Source: a bacterium
GTDB taxonomy: Bacteria; Actinomycetota; Acidimicrobiia; Acidimicrobiales; Bin134
Length of the DNA stretch: 64,000 nt
Direction: 5' to 3'
Assembly: GCA_026708015.1 (NCBI GenBank)
Contig: JAPOVT010000065.1
Span: 5,345 to 69,344 of the forward strand
Within the stretch, counting starts at the first letter, position 1, and every line of letters begins with the position of its first letter. The notes below the pieces were generated by a model. The model searched no databases. It saw only the letters and a program-made list of their open reading frames with translations, and was not told the origin of the DNA. Made by a program: the position numbers and the translations under genes. Shown one piece after another: positions 16,019 through 55,926 of the stretch.

Positions 16019-17032
16019 CTAGCGGTTCAGCTGGGTCAGACGGGCCACCAGCACCTCCAGCACCCCCTCTGGGGGCACAGCAGAGGCACCTCGCAAGTCC
16101 AAGTCGGCTTGGGCCAGCAGCTCGATCGATCGGGCTACCCGCTTCGACCCCAGCTTCCTCACCTGGCGCAGCGCCTTTCGGGCCGGGAAGGTGGAGCCCT
16201 TGAGGCCCAGCAGCTCGGCCGCCTCCTTCTCGTCGGCCGCGTCGGCCCCGTCCAAGCGCAGCAGCCGGTTGTGGTGGTTGTAGAGGGTGGACAGCACCTG
16301 CATCTCGTTGCGGCCTCCGGCGTGGAGCATGCGGCGCAGTTTGTCCAAGGCGTCGGCGATGTTGCCCGACTCCACCGCATCGGTGAGCTCCCAAGGGGGC
16401 ACCGACCCGGCCTCCCAGATGAACGGGGCCACATCGTCGGCCTCCAATGCCCGATCCGGCCCATAGGCCGACGCCAGCGTGGTGAGCACCGCAGGCAGGC
16501 GGCTCATGTCCTCCCCCAGGTGGTCGGCCAGCAGCCGCTTGGCCCCGGGCCGAAGCCGGAGCCCCGCGGCGGCGATCTGGGTGTCCATCCACTTGGCCGC
16601 GCCGTCGCGGCCCCGGGGTACCCCGGCGCCGACCACCTCACCGCCGGCCTCGGCTACTGCTTCCGATAGGCGCTTGGGCACTGCGTTCAGCCTTTGAAGC
16701 GCCGGCCCCTTCTCCCACACCAGCACCAAATCGGTTGTCTCCAGGGGGTTCTCCAGATAGCCAAGCAATGGGCTGAGCGAATCGACGGTGGAGAATCGGC
16801 CCATCTCCCGGCCCACCACCACCCGCCGCTCGGTGAGGAACGGCGGGGTCTGGGCCGCGTCCACCAGCGGGGCGATGTGGTAGTCGTCGTCTTCCAAGTA
16901 GGCGGCCTCGGTCAGCTCGGCCACCATCAGCGACCGGTCGCCGTCGCCCACCAACTGGGCCACACGGTCGCGCACCGCGTTGGACAACAGCACCTCATCG
17001 TCTCCGTGCAGAAGGACCACCGTGGCGCTCAT
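16019..17032 (-). CDS. holA: DNA polymerase III delta subunit
   Basis: LLHGDD, AQTPPFLTERRVVV, PWELTDAV, LAQADLDLRG; convergent with rpsT, downstream of comEC. Confidence 0.88.
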   Translation of the reverse strand: MSATVVLLHGDDEVLLSNAVRDRVAQLVGDGDRSLMVAELTEAAYLEDDDYHIAPLVDAAQTPPFLTERRVVVGREMGRFSTVDSLSPLLGYLENPLETTDLVLVWEKGPALQRLNAVPKRLSEAVAEAGGEVVGAGVPRGRDGAAKWMDTQIAAAGLRLRPGAKRLLADHLGEDMSRLPAVLTTLASAYGPDRALEADDVAPFIWEAGSVPPWELTDAVESGNIADALDKLRRMLHAGGRNEMQVLSTLYNHHNRLLRLDGADAADEKEAAELLGLKGSTFPARKALRQVRKLGSKRVARSIELLAQADLDLRGASAVPPEGVLEVLVARLTQLNR

Positions 17033-17063
17033 CGCCGGCCCCTAAAGCGTTCAACTGTCGCGC

Positions 17064-17906
17064 TCATGCACACTCCCGTTGGCGTTGGAGGATTGCACTC
17101 ATGAAGTCGGCCACCCGGCGGGTGCCGGCAACATCGTGGGCCCGCAAGATCCGACAGCCCAGCCCGACCCCGAGGGCATGGGCCGCCAGCGTTGCCTCCC
17201 GCCGGTCTCCCACCTCGGTGTCGGTCAGCGCCCCCAAGAACCCCTTGTTGGACACTGACAGGAAGATGGGATAGCCCAAATCCACCAGCTCGTCGGCACG
17301 GCGTAGCAGCTCCGCCGACATCTCGGGGGTCTTGCCCAGATCATGGCCGGCATCGAGCATGACCCGCTGCGGGGGAATACCCGCGTCAACGGCCCATTGG
17401 GCCCGCTCGGCCAGAAACCGGCCCACCTCTCCCACCAGGTCGTCGTATACCGGCTCGGGATCGGCCACCCTCGGCGCCAACCGCACATGGCAGGCCACCA
17501 CTGATGCCCTCGCTTCTGCCGCCTCGTGTAGGAAGTCGGGGTCGGCGAACCCGCTGATGTCGTTGCCCACCACCGCCCCGGCAGCGTAGCTCTCCCGGGC
17601 CACCGAGGCCCGCCAGGTGTCCACCGATATGGGCAGGTCGAAGCGCTTCCGCAGCGCCTCTATGGCTGGCACCACCCGGTCCATCTCCTCGGCCTCGGTC
17701 ACCTCAGGGCCAGGACCGGCCTTCACCCCGCCCACGTCCAAGAAGTCGGCCCCCTCGGCCACCAGCTCATCCGCCTTGGCCAAAAAAGCGTCGAAATCCC
17801 AGTACTGACCGGCGTCATAGAACGAGTCAGGCGTGCGGTTCAAGATCCCCATGACCAGGGCCCGGGTGGTCACGTCATAGCGATGCGGCCCCAGCTCCAC
17901 AATCAC
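17064..17906 (-). CDS. folP: Dihydropteroate synthase family protein
   Basis: VMGILNRTPDSFYD, DVGGVKAGPG, ISVDTW, SNKGF, LRAHDV. Confidence 0.9.
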   Translation of the reverse strand: MIVELGPHRYDVTTRALVMGILNRTPDSFYDAGQYWDFDAFLAKADELVAEGADFLDVGGVKAGPGPEVTEAEEMDRVVPAIEALRKRFDLPISVDTWRASVARESYAAGAVVGNDISGFADPDFLHEAAEARASVVACHVRLAPRVADPEPVYDDLVGEVGRFLAERAQWAVDAGIPPQRVMLDAGHDLGKTPEMSAELLRRADELVDLGYPIFLSVSNKGFLGALTDTEVGDRREATLAAHALGVGLGCRILRAHDVAGTRRVADFMSAILQRQRECA

Positions 17907-17916
17907 ACCGGCGACG

Positions 17917-19695
17917 CTACACCGCGCTGGTGTCGGGTGACAGGGTTACCGACACCGTCAGACGGGGGTCGTGGGAGGTCACCTCTACTATGAGGTCTCC
18001 AACCAGGACTTGTTGGCCGGTGCGGATGGTGGTGGCGCCGCCGATGCGGTGGCCGGGCGGAGCGATGACCGTTCCCACCCACATCCGCTCTTTGAGCGAG
18101 AGAATCTGGTCGCGCTGGGCCCGGGTGCCCCGGTCGGCTACTACCGCATCCACGGCTTCAACCCCGGCCCGGCGCAAGTCCTCGAGTAGCCGTTCGGTCG
18201 ACCGGTTGGCGCCCAGAATGACCACTGTCGCGTGGTGATGGCGCCACACTTCGACGCCGGAGTCGAGCACGGCGTGGAACGGAGGATCGGCGATCCGCAG
18301 GGCCACCGCCGGCACCAACAGCGCCATGGCCAATCCCCCGGCGGCCGCCGCCCGCAGCAGTCGACGCCGGGCCAACCACCAGACGACCGCGCCCATGGCC
18401 ACTGCGACCAGATGCGGGATTTGCAGCTCGCCCAGTCGAGCTGACGCCGCCCAGCCGGCCACCGCCTGGATCCAGCCAATGCCCACGCTGGTGGGCCAAT
18501 GGATGACCTGGGCAAGCGGACCGCCCACCAGTCCGGCCACCACGCCGGCCGACAGACTCCACATCATGATCGGCCCGGCCACCGGGGCGGCCAGCAGGTT
18601 GGCGGGCAAAGAGGCCACCGGCACCCCGCCGAAGGTGGCGATCAGCAGCGGTGACACGGCCAACTGTGCTGAGATGGTCACGGCCACCGCGTCGGCCAAT
18701 ATCCGAGGACCGGGTAAGCGCTCGGCGAGGCGGGGGGACCACAAGATGATGCCCGTCGAAGCGGCCACTGACAGCCGGAAGGCCACCGAATGAACCAACA
18801 GCGGATCAACCAGCACCAACAGGGCCACGGCCAGGGCCAGCACACGGCGGCTAGAGGCCTCGCGCCCCACGAGGGTGGCGGTGGCGGCGATGGCGGCCAT
18901 GGCTGAGGCCCGCAGCACCGACGGCTCAAACCGGGTGACCAGAGCGAAAAAGCCGATGGCCCCCAGGGTGAGCACCCAGCGGCCCCGGTAGTCGAACTGC
19001 TCGATCAGGGGTCGGGCCAAGATGAGCACGAAGGCCACGTTCTGGCCCGACACGGCCAGCAGATGGGTGAGCCCCGAGGCCCGAAAGTCATCGGACACCA
19101 CCGGCGACTGGTGGCGGTCGTCGCCGTACGACAGCCCGGTGAACAGGGCGAGGCGGTCGCCGTCCATCGTCTGAGCGCCCCGGGCGATGGTTCGTCGCAG
19201 CCAGTTGGCCAGCCGATAGGGAACAGGTCCATCCTGATGACCGTGGATGCGGTCGATGTTCAGCCGATTGGCGATATGGCGGGCCGCTTGGTAGTCGGGA
19301 AGCGGCAGGATCGGCCGGACGCTACCGGCGACGTTGACGCGGTCCCCTGCCAATCGTTTGCTCAGGTCTCGGGCGGCGCGGCCGTAGGCCCAAGCCTCAT
19401 AGCGTCGTCCGTCCGCCCGCACGAACACCCGCATCCCCTCGCCCACTGGCACCGGATCGGACACCAGGGCGGCTTCGCCGTCAAACGCTGAAGGTTCAAG
19501 GGGATCGAGGCCCGCCCAGGCCCGCGCTCCCAGCGACGAACTCAGCAGCACGACCGCGGCCACCAGCAGCCACGGCCGGCGGACGGCCAGGGCAACAACC
19601 CCCAGGACAATCGCCGGAACCAGCGGGACGGCCGCCGACCACCAGGCACCGGCCAGAGCGGCGACGGCCAACGCCACCGCGTGGCGGTCACTCAT
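17917..19695 (-). CDS. comEC: Competence membrane channel ComEC/Rec2
   Basis: GLTHLLAVSGQNV, EPSVLRA, FRLSVAA, ANLLA; many TM segments; follows comEA. Confidence 0.92.
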   Translation of the reverse strand: MSDRHAVALAVAALAGAWWSAAVPLVPAIVLGVVALAVRRPWLLVAAVVLLSSSLGARAWAGLDPLEPSAFDGEAALVSDPVPVGEGMRVFVRADGRRYEAWAYGRAARDLSKRLAGDRVNVAGSVRPILPLPDYQAARHIANRLNIDRIHGHQDGPVPYRLANWLRRTIARGAQTMDGDRLALFTGLSYGDDRHQSPVVSDDFRASGLTHLLAVSGQNVAFVLILARPLIEQFDYRGRWVLTLGAIGFFALVTRFEPSVLRASAMAAIAATATLVGREASSRRVLALAVALLVLVDPLLVHSVAFRLSVAASTGIILWSPRLAERLPGPRILADAVAVTISAQLAVSPLLIATFGGVPVASLPANLLAAPVAGPIMMWSLSAGVVAGLVGGPLAQVIHWPTSVGIGWIQAVAGWAASARLGELQIPHLVAVAMGAVVWWLARRRLLRAAAAGGLAMALLVPAVALRIADPPFHAVLDSGVEVWRHHHATVVILGANRSTERLLEDLRRAGVEAVDAVVADRGTRAQRDQILSLKERMWVGTVIAPPGHRIGGATTIRTGQQVLVGDLIVEVTSHDPRLTVSVTLSPDTSAV

Positions 19696-19741
19696 CTCGG
19701 GCCGGCGACCACACGTTGGCGGTGCCGCCTCTGTCTGGCGC

Positions 19742-20425
19742 TCACACGGCGACCAGGGCCCGGATCTGTTCGAGTTTGCTGGGACCGATGCCCGACACCG
19801 CCAGCAACCCGTCAACAGAGGCAAACCCGCCGATCCGCTGTCGGTGTTCGATAATGGCCGCAGCAATGGCCGGCCCTACCCCGGGCAGCGACTCCAACTG
19901 CTCGGCGGTGGCAATGTTGAGGTTGAGTGGCCCGGAGCGGGCCTGCGCTCCACCGCCCCCTGACCCGCTTCCGCCCACCGGGGCGGGCACGGTGGTCTGG
20001 CCAATTCGCGGGAAGTACATCCATAGGCCGTCGGAGAGCGGAGCAGCCAGGTTCACCCGGTCGTGGTCGGCATCAGGGGTCAGCCCCCCGGCGGCCTGGA
20101 CCAAGTCGTGGACTCGGGCCTCCCCCCGGAACAAGTACACCCCCGGGGTATGAACCGCACCGGCGGCGTGGACCAGGATCGGAGTCGGCTCAACCGATGG
20201 TGTTGCGGCAACCGGCAGCGGTGTGGCCATAGGAATGATCGCCTCTGGCCGGGGGGTGCCGTTGGCACCGACCATCAGGTAGGCGGCCACTGCGATGGCA
20301 GCCACCAACCCGGCCCCGGCCATCAGCAGTCGGGGGCCGGTGATCAGATGGCGGTAGTCATCCCACATCTCCCGGACCCGTTCCGCGGGAGTCAACCGAG
20401 GAGGAGGAAGCGAGGGTTCTTCCAT
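19742..20425 (-). CDS. comEA: Competence DNA receptor ComEA
   Basis: TM segment, SLBB (VHAAGAVHTPGVY), HhH (LNLNIATAEQLESLPGVGPAIA). Confidence 0.95.
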   Translation of the reverse strand: MEEPSLPPPRLTPAERVREMWDDYRHLITGPRLLMAGAGLVAAIAVAAYLMVGANGTPRPEAIIPMATPLPVAATPSVEPTPILVHAAGAVHTPGVYLFRGEARVHDLVQAAGGLTPDADHDRVNLAAPLSDGLWMYFPRIGQTTVPAPVGGSGSGGGGAQARSGPLNLNIATAEQLESLPGVGPAIAAAIIEHRQRIGGFASVDGLLAVSGIGPSKLEQIRALVAV

Positions 20426-21217: not shown

Positions 21218-21264
21218 CGGCTACCTCTCATCGACCCTGAGGGAACGCTACCCTCACCAATTGC

Positions 21265-22299: not shown

Positions 22300-23165
22300 G
22301 CAGCGAACTCGTCACCGTCCATCAGATGCCCGATTTAGCTGATCCGGTGCTGGTGATGGCACTCGACGGTTGGGTGGATGCCGGCTACGGCATGCGCACT
22401 GCCGCCGAGATCATGACGCAGCCCGACGATGGTGTGCTGGTGGCCAGCTTCGATGCCGATCTGCTCATCGACCACCGAGCCCGCCGCCCCACTATGACCG
22501 TGCGGGACGGCCGAGTGGATGACATCAGATGGCCCGCCATCAGCCTCCAGGTGGTTCACGATCTCGACCAGCAGGAGTTCCTGATGCTCCACGGGCCCGA
22601 GCCCGACTTTCGCTGGCAGGCGTTCTGCACCGCCGTCGATGAGCTGGTGCAGCGGTTGGGAGTGGCCCGGGCAGTGACATTGGGGGCATACCCCGCGGCG
22701 GTGCCCCACACCCGGCCGGTGCGGCTGTCGGCCACCGGCACCTCCCAGAACCTCATCGAGCGATTCGGCTCTCCCCAGGGAACCCTGGAAGTTCCCGCCG
22801 GAATCGGGGCGGCTCTATCCAAGCGGTTCGAGGTGGCGGGCCTGGAAACGGTGTCGGTGTGGGCCCAGGTCCCCCACTATGCGTCCGGTTCCCCGTTCCC
22901 GGCCGCTGCTGCTGCTCTCTTCCAAGGTCTTCGGGCCGTGGCCGATTTGCGGTTCGATTCGGCCCCGCTGATCGCCGAGGGGCTGGAGGTGTCCCGGAAA
23001 TTGGACGCTATGATCGCCCAGAACGCCAGCCACCAGCGGCTGGTTGGGCAGCTGGAGAGCGCCTACGATGCCAGCGCAGGTGAACAAGATACCGAGATCC
23101 CTACCGGCGACGAACTGGCCGAAGAACTAGAGCGCTTCCTACGCGACCAGGACGAGTCGAAATGA
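22296..23165 (+). CDS. PAC2 family (proteasome assembly chaperone-like) protein
   Basis: GWVDAG, DHRARRP, GPEPDFRW, VPHTRP, WAQVPHY, ELERFL. Confidence 0.9.
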   Translation: MSSELVTVHQMPDLADPVLVMALDGWVDAGYGMRTAAEIMTQPDDGVLVASFDADLLIDHRARRPTMTVRDGRVDDIRWPAISLQVVHDLDQQEFLMLHGPEPDFRWQAFCTAVDELVQRLGVARAVTLGAYPAAVPHTRPVRLSATGTSQNLIERFGSPQGTLEVPAGIGAALSKRFEVAGLETVSVWAQVPHYASGSPFPAAAAALFQGLRAVADLRFDSAPLIAEGLEVSRKLDAMIAQNASHQRLVGQLESAYDASAGEQDTEIPTGDELAEELERFLRDQDESK

Positions 23166-23193
23166 CTGTGACCGCAACCCGAGAGGACACGAC

Positions 23194-24246
23194 ATGAAAC
23201 TGGACGGCGGACTAGCGGCAAGAGCGGCTAGAAAAGGCTCGGTTGGACCTCTGGCCGAGGTTGCCGATTCGGCCCGCAATCTGGAGGCCGCCGGCTACGA
23301 CGGGGTCTGGTCTATCGAGCTCGACCATGACCCATTCCTGCCGCTGGTGCTGGCCGCCGAGCACACCAGCCGCATTCAGATCGGAACCTCGATTGCGGTG
23401 GCATTCGCCCGCAACCCCATGATTCTGGCCAATTTGGGGTGGGATCTTCAGGCCTATTCCGGCGGGCGCTTCATTCTCGGCCTGGGTTCGCAGATCAAGC
23501 CCCACATCACCAAGCGTTTCTCCATGCCCTGGTCTCATCCCGCCGCCCGCATGAAGGAGATGGTCGACGGAATAAAGGCCATATGGGAAAGCTGGGAGAC
23601 CGGCGAGCGCCTGTCGTTCCGGGGCGAGTTCTATCAGCACACCCTCATGACGCCGATGTTCAGCCCCGGTGCCAATCCCTTCGGCCCACCCCCTGTTCAT
23701 CTGGCCGCGGTGGGCAACCTCATGACCGAGGTGGCCGGCGAGTCGGCCGACGGTTGGATCAGCCACGGATTCACCACCCCCAGCTACGTGCGGGAGGTGT
23801 CGCTGCCCGCCCTCGAGCGCGGGGCCGCCCGAGCGGGCCGCAATCCGATGGACATAGAAGTGTCGATGCCCGTGTTCATCGTCACCGGAGAGACCGAGGA
23901 GGAGATGGCGTCGTCGGCCCAAGCGGCCCGCCAGCAACTGGCCTTCTACGGTTCAACGCCCGCCTATCGCCCGGTGCTCGAGCACCACGGCTGGGGCGAG
24001 GCCCAAGACGAGCTGAACCGCATGTCCAAACAGGGCCAGTGGGTGGAGATGGCCGATGTGATCGACGACACCATGCTGGGAACCTTCGGCGTTGTGGCCG
24101 AGCCCCAGAACCTGGCCACCGGCGTCGCAGCCAGCTATGGCGGGCTGATCGACCGTATGTCATTCGGCCAGGGCCTCCGTTCCGACGGACCCTGGGGCGA
24201 AGTGCGGGAAGCACTTCGAGCTATTCCAGGACGGTCGCCCGAATAG
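23194..24246 (+). CDS. LLM-class F420-dependent oxidoreductase
   Basis: HDPFLPL, IAVAFARNPM, GRFILGLGSQ, AFYGSTPAY. Confidence 0.9.
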   Translation: MKLDGGLAARAARKGSVGPLAEVADSARNLEAAGYDGVWSIELDHDPFLPLVLAAEHTSRIQIGTSIAVAFARNPMILANLGWDLQAYSGGRFILGLGSQIKPHITKRFSMPWSHPAARMKEMVDGIKAIWESWETGERLSFRGEFYQHTLMTPMFSPGANPFGPPPVHLAAVGNLMTEVAGESADGWISHGFTTPSYVREVSLPALERGAARAGRNPMDIEVSMPVFIVTGETEEEMASSAQAARQQLAFYGSTPAYRPVLEHHGWGEAQDELNRMSKQGQWVEMADVIDDTMLGTFGVVAEPQNLATGVAASYGGLIDRMSFGQGLRSDGPWGEVREALRAIPGRSPE

Positions 24247-28098: not shown

Positions 28099-28407
28099 TC
28101 AGCAGTCGGCAATTGCACCCAGGGCGGCGCAGACCTCGTAGCGCCGATGAGCAATCGTTCCCACATAGCGGGTGAGCGAAGATTTTGGGATTACGCGGAG
28201 ATTGTCGAAGCTAGCCGCACACTGCCCACTCATGCCGTCGTCAATATCAAGCGGCACCTCTGTGGGAATACCGCGTACGCTACGCGTGATCGGTGCGACC
28301 ATAATCCTTCGAAGCCCCTGAATGGCTCGGCCTCGAGTAACAACCAACACGGGACGAATGTCGTTCTCGGTCTCTGCCCACCAGATTTCACACTGTGCCG
28401 GGCTCAC
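28099..28407 (-). CDS. PemK/MazF family toxin
   Basis: EIWWA..RPVLVVTR..VAPIT..GIPTEV..DNL; GTG overlaps the antitoxin stop. Confidence 0.92.
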   Translation of the reverse strand: MSPAQCEIWWAETENDIRPVLVVTRGRAIQGLRRIMVAPITRSVRGIPTEVPLDIDDGMSGQCAASFDNLRVIPKSSLTRYVGTIAHRRYEVCAALGAIADC

Positions 28408-28661
28408 CAGCGCTCCCACGGCTCCTCTGCGACCATCTCTCGGAGATTCTGCTCAGCCCAGCGCAACTCCTCCTCGGTCTCGGGAATGCGCCGGTAGCCC
28501 TCCACAATCGCCTCACCGATGAGCCGGCGTCGACGCTGATCAAGCATATCCTCGAGCGCACACCGCACCGCGTCAGAGCGAGACTTCGCCTCACCGCTGT
28601 CGACCATCTCATCCAATTGAGCCACCAGCTCGTCGTCAACCCTTGTCACCAGCTGTGCCAT
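28404..28661 (-). CDS. Ribbon-helix-helix antitoxin
   Basis: QLVTRVDDELVAQLD..SRSDAVRCAL; upstream of PemK; TATGCT 6 nt before the ATG. Confidence 0.88.
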   Translation of the reverse strand: MAQLVTRVDDELVAQLDEMVDSGEAKSRSDAVRCALEDMLDQRRRRLIGEAIVEGYRRIPETEEELRWAEQNLREMVAEEPWERW

Positions 28662-28707
28662 GCAATAAGCATACCAATTTGCAATACAATCTGGTTTGCC
28701 GGGATGA

Positions 28708-29076
28708 TCAGCCAGCCAATTGGTACATGATGACGTCGGATGGAACCAGCCGCTCCTCCGCCGGGTCCACGGCCAGGGCCAGCCCTTGTAGTGTGTAAGC
28801 CCCCAACAGAATCGGACCATCGTCCTCGCCGAACACCACCAGGGTCCCCTCGCTCTCGCCTTCTACCGTTACCCATGCTCGGCCGTAGTTCATGAATATC
28901 CGCCGTCCGTCGGCCAGACGGAGTCGCCGCGTACCGATGGGCTTCACCCCCAACTCGCGCAGCAGCCTGTCTGGCAGCATGGTGTAGAAGGAACCGGTGT
29001 CCACCATCGCCTCAACCTCCATGGATTCCCCGCCTTCCGCAGCCGAGATCTGGATTGGCACTTTGAAGACTCCCAT
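28708..29076 (-). CDS. Clan AA (retropepsin-like) aspartic protease
   Basis: AMVDTGS catalytic motif, LADG flap, ILLG. Confidence 0.88.
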   Translation of the reverse strand: MGVFKVPIQISAAEGGESMEVEAMVDTGSFYTMLPDRLLRELGVKPIGTRRLRLADGRRIFMNYGRAWVTVEGESEGTLVVFGEDDGPILLGAYTLQGLALAVDPAEERLVPSDVIMYQLAG

Positions 29077-33203: not shown

Positions 33204-33584
33204 CTAGGTCGGCAACGGGTTTGCGGCCAGGGTGGGGCAGTCTTTCCAGAGGAGATCGAGGGCGTAGTAGTCCCGGGCTGACGAAGAGAAGATGTGAACT
33301 ACGAAGTCGCCGTAGTCCATCAGCACCCACTCGTGGTCAGTGAGGCCCTCGATGCAGATGGGCTTGGGACCGCCACAGAGATCCACTGCTTCTTCGATCC
33401 GCTCGGTCAGTGCCCTAACCGCCCGAGTATTCGGCCCACTGGTGATCACAAAGTGATCGGTGATGACCAGCACGTCGCCCACATCGATGATGACGGTGTC
33501 AAACCCGGGGCCATCTTCTGCCGCGTCCGCTGCGGCCTTTACCCAATCCCACACGACCGTTGCGTCAGCGGTGCTGACGCTCAT
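33204..33584 (-). CDS. rsfS: Ribosome silencing factor
   Basis: ITDHFVITSG, WVLMDYGDFVVHIF, RDYYALDLLW. Confidence 0.95.
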   Translation of the reverse strand: MSVSTADATVVWDWVKAAADAAEDGPGFDTVIIDVGDVLVITDHFVITSGPNTRAVRALTERIEEAVDLCGGPKPICIEGLTDHEWVLMDYGDFVVHIFSSSARDYYALDLLWKDCPTLAANPLPT

Positions 33585-33656
33585 GTGGCGATCACGTCAT
33601 CATCCGCAATGGTCGTGAGACGGGTATGGCGCTCATGCGGGCATCACGCTCTCACT

Positions 33657-34826
33657 CTAACCATCTCCGGTCATCAGATGGGAGAAATCTGCGCCGAAGG
33701 TCACCGTGATGTCAGCGGAGGCATTGGGCAGCTCTTCGGCGATGGCCGATCCGGTGCCCAAGGCGTCTCGGTAAGCCTCGGCGTGGGCGGCGAAGCCAAC
33801 ATCGTGATAGGCGACTTTGGTGGTTTCCCATCCGAACTCCGCGGCATTTCCGATCCGCGTGATCTGCGCACCGGCCCGGCTGAGCTCTCGGGCCGCAGTT
33901 TTGGTGAGCTCAAGGTCTCCAACGCCATTGAGCAACCGAACTCTGGGCAAGCTCCCGCTCGAAGCCGAGATGGGAAACGGGATGACTTCCCTCACCTGCC
34001 GGCCAACCCTCTCCGGATCTACTACCACTACTCCACTGTCATCGACCCCCCCAATGATCGTGCTCATGAACACCTCCCCCGCAGCGAGGGCCCGCCCGAA
34101 TCGGCCCATCCCTCGGTCAGTCTCGCCAGGAATAACGTTGGGCGCGGTCGAGTCCCCCACCTGCCTCAGCCAACCCCCCCAGAACGACAGGTGACGAGAC
34201 AAGGCTTCGAACGGCGACTCGCCCGGACTGCGCCCTGCCAAATAAGGCCCGACATCGGCCGCGGCCAAGTTCACCAGTCCGGCCCCGAACCGGGTCTCCC
34301 CGTCAGGGCCAACGAGCGGAACAGCACTGATGAAGGCAATAGGCTCCACCGCCGACACCAACGCCGCCCAGCTGCCATCGTCCACCACCTGCGTCTCGCC
34401 GGGGCGGACATCCAACAACTCGGCAATTGAGTCGGCTACTCCCGCGCTGGCCGACTCGACCCAGCGTTCGCTAATCGACCCTCCAGAGGTCAACGTCTCA
34501 GAGGGAATGAACAGAACCGCCCCCTCGACTCCGGGGTCAGTCAGCGCCAGCAGTGTGACCCCGTGGAGACGGTCGCCGTTGGCGTGGATCAACAGCAGCG
34601 TGGGCGTCGGGTCTACAAATGCCTCGTACCCGGGGGCGTCGGGATTGGCCGGGGTGCTCACCTCCGTACCGTCGCTGCTGCCGGAAATGGCCGACCACCC
34701 CAGCCACACCAGCAGCGGCACCGCGGCGGCTAGACCCAACACCAGCAGCGGCCAGCCCCAGCGCCACCAGCGTGGCGATCCCTTCCTCGGCGCTGCGCCA
34801 CCGGCGCCTGGTGTGGAATCACCCAT
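33657..34826 (-). CDS. Membrane-anchored LCP-like protein with LytR C-terminal domain
   Basis: N-terminal TM segment; C-terminal VRLLNGVG..GNA..DITVTFGADF. Confidence 0.8.
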   Translation of the reverse strand: MGDSTPGAGGAAPRKGSPRWWRWGWPLLVLGLAAAVPLLVWLGWSAISGSSDGTEVSTPANPDAPGYEAFVDPTPTLLLIHANGDRLHGVTLLALTDPGVEGAVLFIPSETLTSGGSISERWVESASAGVADSIAELLDVRPGETQVVDDGSWAALVSAVEPIAFISAVPLVGPDGETRFGAGLVNLAAADVGPYLAGRSPGESPFEALSRHLSFWGGWLRQVGDSTAPNVIPGETDRGMGRFGRALAAGEVFMSTIIGGVDDSGVVVVDPERVGRQVREVIPFPISASSGSLPRVRLLNGVGDLELTKTAARELSRAGAQITRIGNAAEFGWETTKVAYHDVGFAAHAEAYRDALGTGSAIAEELPNASADITVTFGADFSHLMTGDG

Positions 34827-37988: not shown

Positions 37989-39773
37989 ATGGTCACGGTC
38001 CAAATCGACAACACCGCGGTAATCGACCCCGCTCAGCAAGCCGACATCGACAAGTTCGAGCGGATGCTGGCTCGCTACAAGGCCGGTGAGATACCAGAGG
38101 ACGTGATGCGGGTGTTCCGCCTGAACAACGGCATCTATGGACAGCGCCAGGGCGGGACCAACCAGATGGTGCGGGTCAAGATCCCCGCTGGCATCGCCCA
38201 CCCCGAACACTTCGAGGCTTTGGCCCACATCGCCCGGACCTATTCCCGAGGCTGGGGCCACATCACCACTCGCCAGAACATCCAATTCCACTATGTGCAG
38301 ATCGACGACGTTCCCGACGTGATGCGAACCCTGGCCTCGGTGGGGCTCACCACCCGGGAGGCCTGCGGCGACACCGTCCGCAACGTGCAGGGCTGCCATC
38401 TGGCCGGCGCCTGCCCCCATGAGGTGCTCGACATCACCGCCTGGGCCAGGGCTACCGCACTGCACTTCTTGCGCCATCCCTACGCCCAGCGCCTGCCCCG
38501 CAAGTTCAAGATCAACTTCTCGGGGTGCGCCACCGACTGCGGTCAGGCCATGTTCAACGACGTGGGCGTAATCGCCGCCACCCGCGAGGTGGACGGTGGC
38601 GTGGAGGCTGGGTTCCGGGTGTTCGTGGCCGGCGGCCTGGGGGCCAACCCCCATCCGGCGCTGGCCCTGGAAGACTTCACCTCCCGCGAGGACCTGCTTC
38701 CCACCATCGAGGCCTGCCTGCGGGTGTTCGACCACGACGGCTATCGGGACAACAAGCTCCGGGCACGAATGAAGTGGCTGGTGGAGAAGTTGGGCTTCGA
38801 GGAGCTCCAGCGCCGCATTTTCCGGGAACGCAAGTTCTTGCTGGCCTCCTCCAGTTGGCCCGGCGGCATCCCCGATTTGGTGAAGATCCACGGCGACGCT
38901 CCTGCTGGGCGCCACGCTGAAATCGAGGTCACACCGGTGGGTCAAGGGGTGGCGGTCTCCATTGGCGGCCGGGCGCCGTACGAACGGTGGGAGCAGGCCA
39001 ACGTGGTGCGGGGCGCGGCCAAGGGCACGGTCTCGGCCTATGCCTGGGCCCGTCTGGGCGACATCACCGCCGACCAATTCGACTCTCTGGCCGACATCCA
39101 GCGGGAACTGGGCGCGGAGTGCCGGATCACCAACCGCCAGAACATCGTCTTCCGCGACTTGGCCGAGCACCAGCTTCCCCGGCTGTTCGAGGCCTTGTCG
39201 TCTATCGGCATGGCCGAGCCCGGCGCGGAGCTGTTGAGCGATGTTGTGGCCTGCCCCGGCGCCGACACCTGCAACCTGGCCGTGACCCAGTCCCGGGGTT
39301 TGGCCGACGCCATCGGCAACCGCTTGGACGAGGAAGGCCTCGCCGAGGTGGGCGGTTTGCGAATAAACATCTCGGGCTGCACCAATTCGTGCGGCCAGCA
39401 CCACGCCTCCGACATCGGCTTCTTCGGTGCCGAGCGCCGAGCGCACGGGCGGTCGGCACCGGGCTACCAGATGCTTCTCGGCGGCTATGTGGGCGACTCC
39501 CAGATCCACTTTGGTACCAAGGCCCTGCGTCTGCCGGCCCGCAATGCCCCAGAAGCGGTGGTGCGGGTGGTGCGCCAGTTCACCGCCGAACGGGAGGCCG
39601 GCGAAGAGTTCCGCCACTGGCTGGAGCGCAAGGGCGGATCGAGGGAGGTCGGCAAGACGCTGACCGACTTGGACGAGTTCCCCTTGCCCGACGATGGACC
39701 CGAGTTCTACGTCGACTACGACGAGACCGGTCCCTACGAAGCGGTGATCGGCGATTCTGAATGCGCAACCTGA
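37989..39773 (+). CDS. sir: Ferredoxin-type sulfite/nitrite reductase (probably sulfite)
   Basis: HITTRQNIQFH, ACGDTVRNV, LPRKFK, CPGADTC, SGCTNSCGQH; adjacent to cysH. Confidence 0.9.
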   Translation: MVTVQIDNTAVIDPAQQADIDKFERMLARYKAGEIPEDVMRVFRLNNGIYGQRQGGTNQMVRVKIPAGIAHPEHFEALAHIARTYSRGWGHITTRQNIQFHYVQIDDVPDVMRTLASVGLTTREACGDTVRNVQGCHLAGACPHEVLDITAWARATALHFLRHPYAQRLPRKFKINFSGCATDCGQAMFNDVGVIAATREVDGGVEAGFRVFVAGGLGANPHPALALEDFTSREDLLPTIEACLRVFDHDGYRDNKLRARMKWLVEKLGFEELQRRIFRERKFLLASSSWPGGIPDLVKIHGDAPAGRHAEIEVTPVGQGVAVSIGGRAPYERWEQANVVRGAAKGTVSAYAWARLGDITADQFDSLADIQRELGAECRITNRQNIVFRDLAEHQLPRLFEALSSIGMAEPGAELLSDVVACPGADTCNLAVTQSRGLADAIGNRLDEEGLAEVGGLRINISGCTNSCGQHHASDIGFFGAERRAHGRSAPGYQMLLGGYVGDSQIHFGTKALRLPARNAPEAVVRVVRQFTAEREAGEEFRHWLERKGGSREVGKTLTDLDEFPLPDDGPEFYVDYDETGPYEAVIGDSECAT

Positions 39774-39810
39774 GGCCCGCGGCAACCGTCATCCCGATCG
39801 GCAATTCCGA

Positions 39811-40485
39811 ATGCGCAACCTGACCGTACCGTCGTTCACCGACGAAGAACTGGCCGCTCTCAACGAGGAGTTCGAGGGGCTGCCCGCGGAGAAGGTCATC
39901 CAGTGGGGAGTGGACAACTTCTCACCCCACCTGGCCCTGGCCGCGTCGATGACCGACGCGGTGCTGATTGATTTGGCCGTGAAGGTGGACCCAGCCATCG
40001 AGGTGGTGTTCATCGACACCGGGTTCCACTTCCCCGAGACGCTGGAGACGGTGGAGCGGGTGCGACGCCACTACGGCCTGAACCTGCGGCTGATGACGGT
40101 GGCCCGCCACGACCCCGAACTGTGGAACATGGATCCGGAGAACTGCTGCTCAGCGGTCAAAGCGGGCCAGCTCGACCGAGCGCTGGCCGGCAAGGCGGCC
40201 TGGATGAGCGGTCTTCGCCGGGTTGAGGCAGTAACTCGGGCATCGGCCCCCATCGTGGTGCGCGACCTGAGGGGTCTGGTGAAACTGAACCCCATCGCCA
40301 CCTGGACCGACGAGCAGGTGGCCGACTACATGGCCGAGCACCGGGTACCGTTCAACCCCCTGTTGGAGCGGGGCTACCCCTCCATCGGCTGCATGCCCTG
40401 TACCAAGCCCGTGGCCCCCGGCGACGACCCCCGCTCCGGCCGCTGGGCCGGCACCGACAAGACCGAGTGCGGCCTGCACGACTAG
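39811..40485 (+). CDS. cysH: APS/PAPS reductase (CC...CxxC suggests the Fe-S APS type)
   Basis: IDTGFHFPET, ENCC, GYPSIGCMPCT, RSGRW, KTECGLH. Confidence 0.95.
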   Translation: MRNLTVPSFTDEELAALNEEFEGLPAEKVIQWGVDNFSPHLALAASMTDAVLIDLAVKVDPAIEVVFIDTGFHFPETLETVERVRRHYGLNLRLMTVARHDPELWNMDPENCCSAVKAGQLDRALAGKAAWMSGLRRVEAVTRASAPIVVRDLRGLVKLNPIATWTDEQVADYMAEHRVPFNPLLERGYPSIGCMPCTKPVAPGDDPRSGRWAGTDKTECGLHD

Positions 40486-47230: not shown

Positions 47231-47282
47231 GCATTCTGCCGTCGGGGGCAAGCTGTCACAGGCAGGGGATAGATTGTCAGCG

Positions 47283-50135: not shown

Positions 50136-51364
50136 TCAACACGATCACGCTCTACGAGTACGAGCGGAAATCGCATCGGATCTCTGAATCCCAATCACGT
50201 CGCCTTGCCTCCGTGGGAAAGGGCGCGATCACCGTAGAGCCGGAGGCTCACCACGGTTACTACTCAATCACCGCCCAGAACATGGTAGGCACCCTGGTGG
50301 TCGATGATCTCCGGGTGCTGATCCGCCCGAAGATCCGCCCTGAGAACCTGTTTCTGCTGCTGGAAGTGGGCTTGGACCCAAATGCTTGGCGGCAGGAGGC
50401 CTTCGACTACGCGATAAGCGCCAACCTATTGCCTTCGGTGATTGCCTTCTATGCACGCACCTTGGAGACCACCCTGGCCCGAGGACTCCTTCGCTCGTAC
50501 CGCCATACCGAGGAGCGGCTGGTGTCGCTGCGGGGGCGTATCGACATGGCCGGGCAGTTCCGCCAAGCAGGAATCCGGGTGCCGGTGGCGTGCCGATTCG
50601 ACGAGCACACCTCCGACATCGCCGAGAACCGCTATCTGAAGGCCGCAACCCGATTGGCACTGAGGGTTCCCGGTGTGGCTCCAGAGGATCGTCAAAGGTT
50701 GCTCCGGGAGGTCGTGTCACTGGAGGATGTGGCCGACGTCCACGTTCAACCTGACGAACTCGACCGAATTGCGTTCACCCGTTTGAACGTTCACTATCAG
50801 CCTGCGCTGCGCCTCGCCCGACTGCTGCTCGCGAATCTGACTCTGGCCGACCGGCTCGGGCACAACGCCGCTTCGTCGTTCCTGGTGGACATGAACCAAC
50901 TCTTCGAAGACTTCATCACCCAGCGGCTGCGACGGGCGTTGCAGGGCCGTCTCGAAGTAGTGAGCCCATTGAACTCCCATTTGGCAACTCGCAACCAAGT
51001 GCCGATCCGACCCGACTTGGTGTTCCGCAGTCAGGGCCAAGAGGTCTATGTGGCCGACATCAAGTACAAGCTCACCGACGATGCCCGGGCCCGGACCAGC
51101 GACTACTACCAGCTATTGGCGTACACAACCGCTTTGGATCTGCCAGAGGGAGTGCTGATCTACTGCGTAACAGACGGGGGCCGTCCCGAACGGACCGTCA
51201 CCGTCCGCCACGCCGGGAAGCTCCTCCACACCCTGGCCATCAATCTCCGCGGGTCGCCTACCGAAGTAGCCGCAGAAATCGCCATGGCTGCCACCTGGAT
51301 CAATCAGCGTGTCCGGGCAATCCACCCGTTGATTGCCCCTGTTCGACGAAAGCCAGCAGCTTGA
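50132..51364 (+). CDS. mcrC: McrC-like PD-(D/E)xK nuclease subunit
   Basis: GRID, DIAENR, LVDMNQLFE, RPDLV..ADIKYK..DYYQLLAY; GTGA overlap with mcrB. Confidence 0.92.
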   Translation: MINTITLYEYERKSHRISESQSRRLASVGKGAITVEPEAHHGYYSITAQNMVGTLVVDDLRVLIRPKIRPENLFLLLEVGLDPNAWRQEAFDYAISANLLPSVIAFYARTLETTLARGLLRSYRHTEERLVSLRGRIDMAGQFRQAGIRVPVACRFDEHTSDIAENRYLKAATRLALRVPGVAPEDRQRLLREVVSLEDVADVHVQPDELDRIAFTRLNVHYQPALRLARLLLANLTLADRLGHNAASSFLVDMNQLFEDFITQRLRRALQGRLEVVSPLNSHLATRNQVPIRPDLVFRSQGQEVYVADIKYKLTDDARARTSDYYQLLAYTTALDLPEGVLIYCVTDGGRPERTVTVRHAGKLLHTLAINLRGSPTEVAAEIAMAATWINQRVRAIHPLIAPVRRKPAA

Positions 51365-51986
51365 TCCGCGCCCAGAGGCTTGCGGCAAAGTGAGCTGGGA
51401 TAAACGCCAACGCTGGTAGGCAGCCGCCTTTGCTAGTCGCGGCCTGGGGCTTGTTCTTCGTTGCGAATCTCACAGGCGTGTCCTTGGTCATGAACCCGAT
51501 GAGCCTGTCGTTGGCCGGTGGATGGCTTGTGGCCTCGGCGATATACGCGTCGATTTCATGCAAGTCGCCAGGGTCACAGCGCACCATTAGCTCTAGGTTG
51601 TCGGATAGGCCTTTGTCCGTGAGGTTTGCCGAGCCGACCAAGGCAGCCACCGCTTCATTCCTGCCACCCTGAAGAGCAACCACTGCCTTCCCGTGAGCAA
51701 TCTTCTTGACCGGCTTCTGGCGATACCAGTTATGTACCTTTACGTCGCCTCGGCGCAGGAACGCAGCGGCGACCCTTCGATCGTCTTCTGTCGCGACTGC
51801 GAATGATTGCTCAGTCATATCACCAATGACGATTGTGACCCGTTGGCCACTGCCGACTTGCCTGGCCAACCATGCCAGTCCCTTGACGGAGGCGGACCCC
51901 GTGCAGACCACCACGTCGGCACTGCGGTGCTCGTCTAGAAATGCCTTAATCTTGTAAGCAGGTTGAGATGGGCCTCGGCCATTCAC
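51300..51986 (-). CDS. Single-domain PLD-superfamily (HxK) nuclease-like protein
   Basis: TGSASVKGL, IAHGKAVV, LVGSANLT..GL..NLEL; start uncertain. Confidence 0.75.
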   Translation of the reverse strand: MNGRGPSQPAYKIKAFLDEHRSADVVVCTGSASVKGLAWLARQVGSGQRVTIVIGDMTEQSFAVATEDDRRVAAAFLRRGDVKVHNWYRQKPVKKIAHGKAVVALQGGRNEAVAALVGSANLTDKGLSDNLELMVRCDPGDLHEIDAYIAEATSHPPANDRLIGFMTKDTPVRFATKNKPQAATSKGGCLPALAFIPAHFAASLWARIKLLAFVEQGQSTGGLPGHAD

Positions 51987-52145
51987 GGTGTCGGAGGCTA
52001 GACACCTACCGCCAGCTGCGCCACAGCGGATCGAAACTGAAGGCGGCGCGGCACCTGATTCGACCACTGCTCCTCTGCAACATCTTGGGGGATGGTGCAG
52101 TCGGTCAAGGACAAGCTGTCACTGGTCGTCGGTATAGTGCCCGTC

Positions 52146-53339
52146 ATGGCTTATGGGGCTGTGGCCAGGGATTTTGAGGTCACCGCTGAGGTGCCGGCTC
52201 TCGACCCGGCAGACATGTCGAGCGACATGCGACGGGCTGCTTTGGCATCGGTGCGGCGGGCTGAAGCGCGACTGGCCGGATGGAAGATCCGGCTAATCAA
52301 CGCGGAGCGCGATCAGCATGGCGTGGGCGCAGCCGAATTGGCAGTCCGGGAGGAGCTTCAGGCTTCCAAGCGGGAAGCCAAGCGGGATGTGGAAACTGCA
52401 ACCAGATTGTCGGGGCTGGCCGAGACTTGGAGGGCTCTCGAAGCTGGGGAAATCCCCCAAAAGCACGCCTGGCTGATCGCCCGAGCTTCAGCAGAGGGGC
52501 CGATTGATGAGACCGCCTTGACTGAAGCGGCTAGACACCAGCCCTACGACCAGTTTGCCCGCACCCTCCGCCAGCAGCAGCGGGATCTCTCAACCGATGA
52601 CGGCCAATCGATTCTGGACTGTCAAGGCGAGAAGCGCACAGGGCAGATGTTCGAGAGCCGGGAAGACGGCATGTTCGTGGTGTCTGGCGAATTCGACCCC
52701 ATCACCGGCAATCGGATCGCCTTGGCCATCTCCGACAAGGAGCGAGAACTGTGGCGCAAGGAAGACCCGAAGAGTCGCCGCACGCCACAGCAGCGGATGG
52801 CTGACGCGCTGGCTGAGTTGATTCTCGAACCGAAGTCAGGCCAGCCGTCGCGCACCGCATTGCTGGTGATCGCCGACTACGACGCCGTTCATCGCGAGCT
52901 GGTCAATGCCCGGCTGTGCGATGGCACTCCAATTCCGGTGGGCGAGCTGCGTCGGTTGGCCTGTGATGCCGACATTCTGCCCGCCGTGTTCCGAGCCAAG
53001 ACCCAGGAACTCTGGCTGGGCCGAAAGCGGCGGATAGCCACTGAGGCCCAGCGGGCCGCATTGGCACTGCGAGACAAGGGCTGCATCGGTTGCGATGCCA
53101 ACCCCGCCTGGTGCCAAGCGCACCACATCCAACCCTGGTCCTGGGGCGGGCCGACTAACCTCGACAACTTGGTGCTGGTCTGCGCCCGCTGCCACCACAA
53201 CATTCACGATGACGGGTGGGAAGTGGCCCAGTGCCCCATCACCGGGCGATATGACCTGAGGCCACCGCCTGAGCCGTTCCCCGAAACCGGTACGGCTATC
53301 GACCGACCACCTCAGCGAAACCCAGTGCTCTTGAGATGA
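52146..53339 (+). CDS. DUF222 (13E12-repeat type) HNH endonuclease
   Basis: QRMADAL, RRLACDA, RDKGCIGC..AHHIQPW..GGPTNLDNLVLVCARCHH; ATG 7 nt after TATAGT. Confidence 0.92.
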   Translation: MAYGAVARDFEVTAEVPALDPADMSSDMRRAALASVRRAEARLAGWKIRLINAERDQHGVGAAELAVREELQASKREAKRDVETATRLSGLAETWRALEAGEIPQKHAWLIARASAEGPIDETALTEAARHQPYDQFARTLRQQQRDLSTDDGQSILDCQGEKRTGQMFESREDGMFVVSGEFDPITGNRIALAISDKERELWRKEDPKSRRTPQQRMADALAELILEPKSGQPSRTALLVIADYDAVHRELVNARLCDGTPIPVGELRRLACDADILPAVFRAKTQELWLGRKRRIATEAQRAALALRDKGCIGCDANPAWCQAHHIQPWSWGGPTNLDNLVLVCARCHHNIHDDGWEVAQCPITGRYDLRPPPEPFPETGTAIDRPPQRNPVLLR

Positions 53340-53481
53340 AGATCACCAACTGGGCAAGCGGCAATCCCCGCGGCTGGTCCCCGATGTCCCGGAAACCGGC
53401 AATCTAAAGCCGTCAAACCGCACTAGCACCTTGACAATTGAATGGAGAGAGGTTGCGTGGACAGCCGCCGCCTACCTCGGC

Positions 53482-54942
53482 CTACACCAAGTTCTCGACG
53501 AATCCTTCGAGTTGGCGGAGGTTGCGGACTTCGAAGACGCCGTCGCAGTGGACGCCGTATTCGGAGACGATGGAGTCGCCGGTGTCCCAGTAGGCGCCGG
53601 GCTCGGGGTTGAGCCAGAAGACTTTGCGGGCTCGGTGCTCGATCTCCTTGAGGATCCAGGCCTGGGAGGCGTGGTAGTTGTTGCGGGCGTCACCCAGGAT
53701 CATCACCGTGGTCTTGGGGCCGACGTCTTTCCCGTAGCGCTCCCAGAACACCTCGAAGGCATGGCCGTAGTCGGAGTGGCCGTCCACCCACACCACGTCG
53801 GCCTCGGCGTTCACTCGGTGGACGGCTTCGCCGATGTCGTCCACCCCCTCGAAGAAGCTTGTCACCTCGTCGAGGCCGTCGATGAACACGAATGAGCGCA
53901 CCTTGGAGAACTGGTTGCTGATGGCGTACACCAGATGCAGGGTGAACCGGGCGAAGGCGGCCACCGACCCGCTCACGTCGGCCACCACCATGATCTCGGG
54001 CTTGGCCGGGCGGGGATAGCGGAACTTGGGCTCGGCGGGCACGCCCCCGTAGGAGAGCGAGTGACGCATGGTGTTGCGGAAGTCCAGAGGGCCCTTGCGG
54101 CCGTGGCGCCGCTTGCGGGCCAGCCGCACGGCCAGCTTGCGGGTGAGCGGGTAGATGGCCCGGCGCAGGGCCATCATCTCCTCCCGGCTGGCGTGCATGA
54201 AGTCCACGTCTTCGGGCAGGGGCTTGCGGAGCGTTTTGGCCATAGCCTCCACTCCCCGATCAGCCACTAGACGGCGGCGGATCTCGGCCTCCACTTCCTT
54301 GCGGAGTTGGTCGACTCGGGCCTCGAACTCGTCACGCTCCAGCCGCTCCTCGAGCGGAGTGAGATCGCCAGGGGCGTCTTGGCGGGCCTGGTCCATCAGA
54401 CGCTCCAGCACGCCATCGAGATCGAGATTCCGCAGCGTGCGATACAGGTAGTAGGTGCCGCCCACCGGCCGACCAGGCTCCATGCCAGCGTAGCGCTGCA
54501 CCGCTTGACGGGCGATGGCCCGCATTAGGGCGTCGTCGCCCCGCATCAGGGCTTGGAACAGCATCTCGGCCAATTGCTCGGCCGACATGGCCTCGCCGCC
54601 GCCCCCGCCTTGGCGGCGCTGCTGGCCGTCCATGCCGTCGACGAAGTCGGACAGGTCCATTCCTTCGGGCCACTCGCCATCGATGAGGTCGTACTCAGCT
54701 CCCCGGAGCGAGAAGTACACCTCGAACACCGTCTCGAATGCCCGCCAGTGGGCGTGGTTCTTCACCAGGGTGGCGGCCAACGCATACTTGAACGCATCCC
54801 GGTCCTCGATGGGGATGTGCTGGATGGCCTCCATGGCGTCCAGGTTCTCGGTGAGACTGACCGGCAGCCCCGCGGCCCGCAGCTCGGAGATGAACCCGGC
54901 CAGAAGCGCCAGCAGCGGCGAAGTGGCGGGCTCGACCTTCAT
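53482..54942 (-). CDS. CoxE-like VWA domain protein
   Basis: LRAAGLPVS, DVSGS MIDAS, LGDARNN, WLNPEP. Confidence 0.92.
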   Translation of the reverse strand: MKVEPATSPLLALLAGFISELRAAGLPVSLTENLDAMEAIQHIPIEDRDAFKYALAATLVKNHAHWRAFETVFEVYFSLRGAEYDLIDGEWPEGMDLSDFVDGMDGQQRRQGGGGGEAMSAEQLAEMLFQALMRGDDALMRAIARQAVQRYAGMEPGRPVGGTYYLYRTLRNLDLDGVLERLMDQARQDAPGDLTPLEERLERDEFEARVDQLRKEVEAEIRRRLVADRGVEAMAKTLRKPLPEDVDFMHASREEMMALRRAIYPLTRKLAVRLARKRRHGRKGPLDFRNTMRHSLSYGGVPAEPKFRYPRPAKPEIMVVADVSGSVAAFARFTLHLVYAISNQFSKVRSFVFIDGLDEVTSFFEGVDDIGEAVHRVNAEADVVWVDGHSDYGHAFEVFWERYGKDVGPKTTVMILGDARNNYHASQAWILKEIEHRARKVFWLNPEPGAYWDTGDSIVSEYGVHCDGVFEVRNLRQLEGFVENLV

Positions 54943-55011
54943 GGCAGCCTCAGCGCAGGGGCGTCGAGGGATGGCGCGAGGGGCGGGTGACCTTGCGTTG
55001 GACGAGGAGGG

Positions 55012-55926
55012 TCACGACGTTGCGACCGGGGCGGCAAATTCCTCGTCGGAGGAGGCGAACTCCTTGAGCGCCTTTTCGATGTCGCTGCGGTACTTGAGCA
55101 GGATGTTCACCGTCTCGGCCGCAGTGTCGGCGTCGATGTGCTCCACCCCCAGCAGCACCAGGGTGCGGGCCCAGTCCAGGGTCTCCGACACCGACGGGGC
55201 CTTCTTCAACTCGATCTGGCGAACCGATCGCACGATGCGGGCCACTTGGTCGGCCAGGCTCTCGCCCACGCCGGGAACCTTGGCCAGCACGATCTCCTTC
55301 TCCCGGTCGAGATCGGGATAGTCGATGTGCAGAAACAGGCACCGCCGCTTGAGGGCTTCCGACAGCTCCCGGGTGTTGTTGGACGTGAGGAACACCAGTG
55401 GGATCTGGCTGGCGGCCACCGTGCCCAACTCGGGGATGGACACCTGGTAGTCGGACAGGATCTCCAGCAACAGCGCCTCGGTCTCGATCTCCACCCGGTC
55501 GACCTCGTCGATGAGCAGCACCACCGGCTCAGCGGCGCGGATGGCCTCGAGCAGCGGCCGGGTGAGCAGGAACTCCTCGGAGAACAGATCGTCCTCGATC
55601 TGCTGCCACATGCCGTCGCCCTCGGGGCCTTGTCCCTGGCGCTCGGCTTGAATGCGAAGGAGTTGCTTCTTGTAGTTCCACTCGTACAGCGCCTTGGACT
55701 CGTCGAGGCCCTCGTAGCACTGGAGGCGGATGAGACGGGCACCGGTGGCCTCGGCCACGCTCTTGGCCAATTGGGTCTTGCCGGTGCCCGCCGGACCCTC
55801 CACCAGCACCGGCTTCTGTAGCCGCTCGGCCAGATAGACCACACCGGCGATGCCCTCGTCAGCCAGATACTGCACGCCGCTCAGGCCCTTGCGCACCGAG
55901 TCGACGTCGGCAAAGGAGAAGCTCAT
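55012..55926 (-). CDS. MoxR/CoxD-like AAA+ ATPase
   Basis: EGPAGTGKT, RLQCYEGLD, LLIDEVDR, LSEALKRRC. Confidence 0.94.
   Translation of the reverse strand: MSFSFADVDSVRKGLSGVQYLADEGIAGVVYLAERLQKPVLVEGPAGTGKTQLAKSVAEATGARLIRLQCYEGLDESKALYEWNYKKQLLRIQAERQGQGPEGDGMWQQIEDDLFSEEFLLTRPLLEAIRAAEPVVLLIDEVDRVEIETEALLLEILSDYQVSIPELGTVAASQIPLVFLTSNNTRELSEALKRRCLFLHIDYPDLDREKEIVLAKVPGVGESLADQVARIVRSVRQIELKKAPSVSETLDWARTLVLLGVEHIDADTAAETVNILLKYRSDIEKALKEFASSDEEFAAPVATS

Follow-up and report, generated by a model that had tools for sequence, protein, structure and literature searches.

Short open reading frames bridge many lengthened operon junctions in a genus of Acidimicrobiales and are probably retained for their position

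Termination-reinitiation coupling has been described at NTGA overlaps, in which one gene's stop codon and the next gene's start codon share 4 nt (PMC12548453, PMC10666635, PMC6728339; these and the other sources given by identifier are cited for the parts of their text that were available). In both E. coli and H. volcanii, coupling is nearly abolished by about 20 nt (PMC10666635), and this near-loss would provide the reason for the elements described here. They are short open reading frames (mini-ORFs), termed relays, each of which opens on the stop codon of an upstream gene and closes on the downstream gene's start codon. Relays are reported here from a 64,000-nt stretch of contig JAPOVT010000065.1 (assembly GCA_026708015.1, positions 5,345 to 69,344; the window) of a bacterium of the Acidimicrobiales, and from the genome to which it belongs (G000; 3.5 Mb, 64% GC; the window is on its contig C5). 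The stop/start tetramer is the same as in termination-reinitiation, whereas relays chain at least two overlaps via a throw-away ORF placed between full genes.

Several described systems resemble relays. The coupled leaderless small ORFs of mycobacteria (Shell et al. 2015, PMC4633059) share with them the coupling at RTGA, i.e., (A/G)TGA, an unconserved peptide, and a proposed delivery of ribosomes. However, the mycobacterial ORFs begin at the 5' end of the transcript, while the 75 relays of G000 begin on an upstream stop codon and have no -10 box. MIRUs, as summarised in PMC12548453, are inserted short ORFs coupled at -4 nt which preserve the expression of the following gene, and an internal ORF coupled at -4 nt is found in relays as well. 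In contrast to MIRUs, which are a mobile repeat family, the relay spacers do not form a many-copy sequence family and derive from the local junction. In M. tuberculosis, overlaps among upstream ORFs (uORFs), and between uORFs and genes, form chains of 4-nt and 1-nt steps, as in relays, for which hand-over of 70S ribosomes and suppression of Rho termination have been proposed; purine starts dominate among them (10.1101/2022.06.01.494293). These uORF chains differ in that they sit in leader regions, and the available text of that study describes no origin by junction duplication. Similarly, the terms 'duplicat', 'short ORF' and 'insertion' do not occur in the available part of a preprint reporting that overlaps are labile (10.64898/2026.09.10.750558). 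We found no published account of inter-gene relay ORFs arising by junction duplication in a search that did not cover subscription journals and bioRxiv supplements. The idea thus has precedents, and the advance is in the scale, the origin, and the evidence of selection.

The preliminary description of the window, made from its sequence alone, listed six co-directional junctions with mini-ORFs, and all of their coordinates match. Apart from the leader of rsfS, the mini-ORFs are given below, with a candidate second step at one junction.

17029..17067, minus strand: relay mini-ORF at folP>holA, 12 codons, a single unit of 35 nt, with an ATGA overlap at either end.
19692..19745, minus strand: relay mini-ORF at comEA>comEC, 17 codons, a 50-nt unit, overlaps GTGA then ATGA.
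23162..23197, plus strand: relay mini-ORF at PAC2>LLM, 11 codons, ATGA at both ends.
39761..39823, plus strand: relay mini-ORF at sir>cysH, 20 codons, a tandem copy (50 nt) of a junction with a 13-nt overlap.
54950..55015, minus strand: mini-ORF at MoxR>VWA, 21 codons, which overlaps the stop of MoxR and terminates 7 nt short of the VWA ATG at 54942.
54939..54953, minus strand: candidate second step at MoxR>VWA, four codons, with a CTG overlapping the stop of the first mini-ORF and an ATGA end on the VWA start.

The 4-nt overlaps reported at both ends of the folP>holA, comEA>comEC and PAC2>LLM mini-ORFs, and the 13-nt overlaps at both ends of that in sir>cysH, are present. Most of the gene names also hold. 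Those of folP, holA, cysH, rsfS and the F420 LLM gene are supported above NCBIfam cut-offs, and Pfam supports the PAC2, Competence, HHH, AAA and VWA_CoxE domains; 'sir', however, is a NIR_SIR-family protein below named cut-offs, and 'LCP' contains a LytR_C domain only.

Throughout the genome, relays are in excess behind genes ending in RTGA. The gene set was obtained with a purpose-written hexamer gene caller (3270 genes), and the base set comprised the 1744 adjacent co-directional pairs of well-scoring genes, of which 948 are spaced junctions, i.e., co-directional pairs 5-100 nt apart. Relays occupy 75/228 spaced junctions behind RTGA, compared with 26/304 behind YTGA, i.e., (C/T)TGA terminating the upstream gene (Fisher p 2e-12), and 43/416 behind genes ending in TAG or TAA. 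The expectation of the preliminary description, that such mini-ORFs would outnumber those in shuffled or length-randomised spacers, is borne out. In 500 rounds of each null, shuffled spacers gave a mean of 51.4 relays (maximum 63), length-randomised spacers 33.6 (maximum 49), and swapped spacers 21.9 (maximum 36), and the observed 75 was never reached. A possible direct start near the stop is present in 120/948 pairs, which include 5/75 relays. Hidden direct starts were rejected as the cause of the excess, since excluding such pairs strengthens it (70/152 behind RTGA vs 23/286; p 1e-19), and the filtered excess is significant in 4/4 gap bins, from 5-19 up to 70-100 nt. Moreover, a count of the frame of the downstream gene, which is independent of its own start calls, gives a ratio of relay frame to third frame of 103:40 behind RTGA and 245:229 behind other stops. 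The excess was replicated in 1.6 Mb of the congener G014 (16/73 vs 11/127; p 0.01) and in 0.4 Mb of the congener G008 (8/20 vs 0/12; p 0.014).

Direct 4-nt overlaps number 264 among the 1744 pairs of G000, and a tetramer resembling a Shine-Dalgarno (SD) sequence is about as frequent at them (125/264) as at relay targets (41/75). Among the gene ends of convergent pairs (n=793), 60 are RTGA and 230 CTGA; this scarcity fits RTGA being a restart signal that is avoided where nothing follows, although other causes are possible. Operon context did not discriminate between these classes, as a neighbouring direct overlap occurs at 24/75 relays, 79/264 direct overlaps and 174/720 other junctions. On the minus strand of contig C24 of G000 there are eight relays, six of them within about 23 kb. 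Within the window, 3/5 spaced junctions ending in RTGA are strict relays, the exceptions being nadD, with a direct 8-nt overlap, and MoxR, a near miss.

For each junction of the window, 25-30 congeners were compared (G and L numbers denote related genomes and loci), and the spacers were found to vary stepwise, from a direct overlap to inserts of one, two or three units. At folP>holA, the gap in 30 genomes is -4 (8 genomes), 31 (16) or 66 nt (6), equal to 0, 1 or 2 units of 35 nt, and the genes are coupled in 30/30, one via a TTG start. The comEA>comEC junction is direct or in-frame in 13 of 30 genomes, one-step in 14, three-step in 2 (3 x 17 nt), and broken in 1, with spacer lengths of 0, 17, 50 or 3 x 17 nt and one 123-nt form. 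The PAC2>LLM gaps measure 19, 22, 25, 28 or 31 nt in 28/30 genomes, a strict relay is present in 26/30, and the LLM gene has its own SD-like GAGAGGA. At sir>cysH, where the 13-nt overlap occurs twice, 50 nt apart, 10 of 30 genomes have the direct 13-nt overlap, 19 a 50-nt unit and 1 a 47-nt unit; all 20/20 unit-bearing alleles retain an open frame with ATG or GTG, the latter in four alleles. The gaps at MoxR>VWA across 30 genomes are 21, 22, 59, 69 and 75 nt.

Two further junctions of the window vary in a similar way. The gene with the LytR_C domain overlaps nadD directly by 8 nt (34826-34819, minus strand), and its start is likely at 34826; in L020, a duplication of this overlap has a unit of 55 nt, as phase demands, and again yields a relay. 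At comEC>folP (17917-17906, minus strand; loci L046-L059), a direct GTGA overlap is found in 7/27 loci, and a stop lies 10 nt before folP in G000 and 18 others. In L059, a 61-nt duplication of this junction produces a two-step chain which closes via an inner TTG step.

At folP, cysH, comEC and rsfS, the insert is present in some relatives and absent from others, and either state may be the ancestral one. Where the origin is visible, the spacer is apparently a tandem copy of the local junction, as had been claimed for several of them, and the mini-ORF would thus consist of the downstream gene's start fused to the upstream gene's end. Over the whole genome, the sequences flanking the two overlaps agree at 9.0 of 20 bases, compared with 5.9 at random, and the copy signature is strong in 18/68 relays. 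Junction units are repeated in tandem almost perfectly in several arrays among the G008 loci L261-L280; these arrays form three- and four-step chains, which suggests ongoing expansion. Collapse of an intervening gene was rejected as an origin, since 0/32 junctions with an extra gene in one genome are relays in the other. An assembly artefact was also rejected, because relatives carry the same spacers.

By geometry, an insert of 3n+2 ends on the second overlap, one of 3n gives an N-terminal extension, and one of 3n+1 breaks the link unless it is crossed in two steps. Of the junctions with RTGA at both ends, 64 have the relay frame and 15 the third frame, and 7/15 of the latter are two-step chains. 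Comparison of 671 orthologous junctions gave 56 in which a direct overlap in one genome corresponds to a junction lengthened by 5 nt or more in the other. RTGA is kept in 42 of them, and 39/42 are still coupled, including 20/20 in the 3n+2 class. In the relative, 33/35 relays and 134/149 direct overlaps have preserved the upstream RTGA, compared with 22/38 uncoupled junctions (p 3e-4). Furthermore, among 295 variants in seven allele sets, which come from kin and are not independent, the relay frame acquired 1 new stop compared with 8.0 expected, and the other two frames 12 vs 10.3 and 7 vs 7.3 (p 0.003). This count read the rsfS allele L008 one base out of register, and the inner stop in its own frame there is an ATGA restart. 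One-base indels accompany rewired and complete chains, with an extra ATGA (L008), fused ORFs (L020) or an in-frame extension (L120). Substitutions at the three codon positions number 22/19/18 in 82 relay codons, compared with rates of 0.10/0.06/0.25 per site in genes, and the 295 variants are divided 103/90/102, evenly and near the third-position rate of genes. No amino-acid constraint on relay peptides was found, the substitutions being even across codon positions. Selection is likely to act on the open frame, and not on the peptide, because stops are avoided in the relay frame while substitutions are spread evenly over the codon positions.

We consider it probable, from these comparisons of sequences, that lengthened junctions survive mostly if a mini-ORF hands a re-initiating ribosome to the downstream start. 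In the proposed pathway, an overlapping stop/start junction would gain 11-70 nt, often as a tandem copy; the first overlap would then open a short frame, and an insert of 3n+2 would close it on the second overlap. By analogy with other species, the terminating ribosome would re-initiate on the overlapping ATG or GTG, translate the mini-ORF, and re-initiate again. Selection would then retain both overlaps and the open frame, and not the peptide, as suggested by the statistics on relatives. The rsfS chain may employ the same device, fed likely by a leaderless start rather than by an upstream gene.

Relays could also be a neutral by-product, if duplications form preferentially in the codon register 3n+2 and the double overlap follows automatically, without selection. 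There is indeed a microhomology bias of up to about 4-fold towards 3n+2 relative to 3n+1, the spacers have a copy signature, the peptides drift freely, and the relay frames are coding-like, as copied gene ends would be (hexamer score -0.15, compared with -1.0 and -0.9 in the other frames). Nevertheless, a rough model that includes this microhomology bias predicts 23-47 broken junctions among those with RTGA at both ends, compared with 8 observed, and the deficit of new stops, a retention of RTGA like that at direct overlaps, and the rewired chains that accompany one-base indels also argue against neutrality. The register bias is real and, by the estimate of this rough model, too small alone to explain relays, and we regard a purely neutral origin as unlikely. 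A mobile repeat of the MIRU type, inserting at start codons and supplying the ORF, would be in keeping with the -4-nt coupled internal ORF described for MIRUs (PMC12548453) and with the clustering of relay unit lengths at 35-44 nt. Only 4/68 spacers have a second match in the genome, however, none has more than two, and the visible origins are the local junction. A mobile family was rejected on these grounds, and the explanation is largely refuted here.

Alternatively, restart at the overlap might be real with selection acting only against out-of-frame run-on, so that the next gene initiates independently, comparable to the fourth-base-A 'catch' proposed as an alternative reason for ATGA starts (PMC5850271). 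Such damage control would account for the depletion of out-of-frame run-on into the next gene (24/228 behind RTGA vs 66/234 behind CTGA), for the SD-like motifs at relay targets, and for the tolerance of relay loss at PAC2>LLM. Any stop in the spacer would then do, and yet stops elsewhere are not enriched (61/228 vs 90/234) and early stops are avoided, which leaves this explanation quite improbable. The preliminary description also envisaged a role for the coupling peptides themselves. Were the mini-ORFs regulatory leader peptides or small proteins, a possibility raised for mycobacterial small ORFs (PMC4633059), their sequence should matter, and the rsfS leader does begin with a four-codon ORF that is alike across the genus. 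The even substitutions speak against such a role; the amino acid is unchanged between G000 and relatives at 48/82 relay codons, and the mini-ORF is wholly absent in 8/30 (folP) and 10/30 (cysH) genomes. We consider such a role very unlikely.

A number of observations weigh against the proposed retention of relays for coupling. The comEC junction of L108 is broken, and the PAC2>LLM relay is lost in 4/30 genomes, two without a start (TAA stop), one with an inner stop and one with no chain. Among the filtered RTGA junctions, 82/152 are not one-step relays, and with an SD-like motif at 41/75 targets, hand-over may be unnecessary there. The preliminary description had proposed that insertions are kept only when they pass the ribosome on; retention is mainly where coupling geometry survives (39/42), but RTGA was lost at 14/56 lengthened junctions. 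In addition, 7/41 relay junctions of G000 are uncoupled in a relative, and the retention of RTGA is weaker when viewed from the side of the relatives (37/48 vs 25/44; p 0.047). In counts over 257 direct junctions, microhomologies in the 3n+2 register outnumber those in the 3n+1 register 1.45 to 4.25-fold. With little copy signature in 32/70 relays, an origin by copying is uncertain for about half of them, and the units may go back to one old event followed by expansion and collapse. The selection and spacer comparisons cover one genus, in which congeners are kin and non-independent, and the gene starts come from the purpose-written caller, which missed at least one 8-nt overlap. Finally, studies cited in PMC12548453 report that coupling persists over at least 25 nt without any ORF.

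Stop/start overlap, or proximity within a few bases, is found at the relays; at MoxR>VWA the reported upstream overlap and the end 7 nt short of the next start are confirmed, but closure is obtained only by a CTG start or a 7-nt slide, and 7/30 genomes have no chain at all from the MoxR stop. CTG is a weak start codon. The position of the second-step CTG is occupied by TTG in L169 and L171, and by GTG in L180. No CUG starts are reported among the uORFs of M. tuberculosis (10.1101/2022.06.01.494293), which counts against the CTG step.

The leader of rsfS differs from these junctions in that its mini-ORFs probably depend on a promoter of their own. Its features are the following.

33655-33644, 33647-33633, 33636-33592 and 33595-33581, minus strand: the four mini-ORFs of the rsfS chain as first described.
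33654..33659, minus strand: -10-like box TAGAGT, consisting of the upstream stop codon and 3 further nt and lying 6 nt upstream of GTG 33647; predicted leaderless promoter.
33581..33647, minus strand: rsfS leader chain of three RTGA-linked mini-ORFs (4, 14 and 4 codons), a 52-nt duplication of a one-step leader.
33644..33655, minus strand: the first of the four, with 3 codons; its presence is probably incidental to the -10 box.

Thus the four ORFs described between 'LCP' and rsfS exist, but they are likely fed by a leaderless promoter and not by the upstream gene. L008, L016 and L017 have GTT as the start of the 3-codon ORF, and L003 lacks this start. In 25/25 loci of the genus, the upstream gene's stop codon is TAG or TAA; together with the three bases that follow, it makes up a TANNNT 6-7 nt ahead of the GTG in 24/25, the 25th having it in a second copy. 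A -10 box 5-8 nt before ATG or GTG is accordingly present in 24/25 loci, as in coupled leaderless small ORFs, and the rsfS leader likely belongs with these (PMC4633059). From GTG 33647, the chain arrives in the rsfS frame in 24/25 loci. The leader has a 20-nt one-step form in 4 loci and mostly 72-75 nt elsewhere, its four-codon first ORF is similar across the genus, and no leader of this type was seen at five rsfS loci from other families. It is likely, with the transcript start predicted from sequence, that the chain is a leaderless four-codon ORF coupled to rsfS and later duplicated. The -10 box pattern matches that of divergent first genes in G000, of which 204/810 have TANNNT 5-8 nt upstream, compared with 25 at a control offset. 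The count of 204/810 agrees with the initial view that the lineage is rich in leaderless genes. A direct tie between relays and leaderless initiation does not hold, in that 0/75 relay starts have the TANNNT box at 5-8 nt, and leaderless uORFs were rejected as a general explanation. In a wider scan, a boxed one-step uORF was found at 11/883 RTGA-starting genes, compared with 2/883 in the control frame.

Other features of the window were observed along with the junctions. Between 19742 and 23165, comEA is closest to that of G009 (88%) and PAC2 to that of G003 (93%), and both are 84-85% identical to G007, unlike holA and cysH, which are 99% identical to G007; the comEA-PAC2 stretch is possibly a recombined patch, to judge from these identities. 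The region 47274-53339 contains McrB-like and McrC-like genes that overlap directly at GTGA, followed by an opposite-strand PLD/NgoFVII-like ORF and a DUF222-HNH gene, and is likely a defence patch. At 28099-29076 (minus strand), a PemK/MazF-type toxin and a ribbon-helix-helix partner lie behind a small aspartyl-protease-like gene.

Free scanning by ribosomes over 30-60 nt would make the frame of the spacer irrelevant, and here the frame appears to matter. Relays therefore offer comparative evidence from natural genomes on the question of scanning versus overlap (PMC12548453, PMC10666635), and they imply that counts of overlap 'loss' can overstate the loss of coupling (cf. 10.64898/2026.09.10.750558). 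A more far-reaching reading, which we put forward as speculative and rather doubtful, is that overlap restart is near-obligatory in the genus, with a hidden layer of about one relay per four direct overlaps that keeps coupling, and with steps that act as tunable and fast-evolving dials. As part of the same doubtful reading, the leaderless restart chain of rsfS would tie the synthesis of the ribosome-silencing factor to ribosome retention or restart, in a feedback switch that has not been described. The junctions provide a natural allelic series of 0, 1, 2 and 3 units. It is predicted that G000 contains about 70 unannotated short ORFs which are kept for their position, and not for their product.

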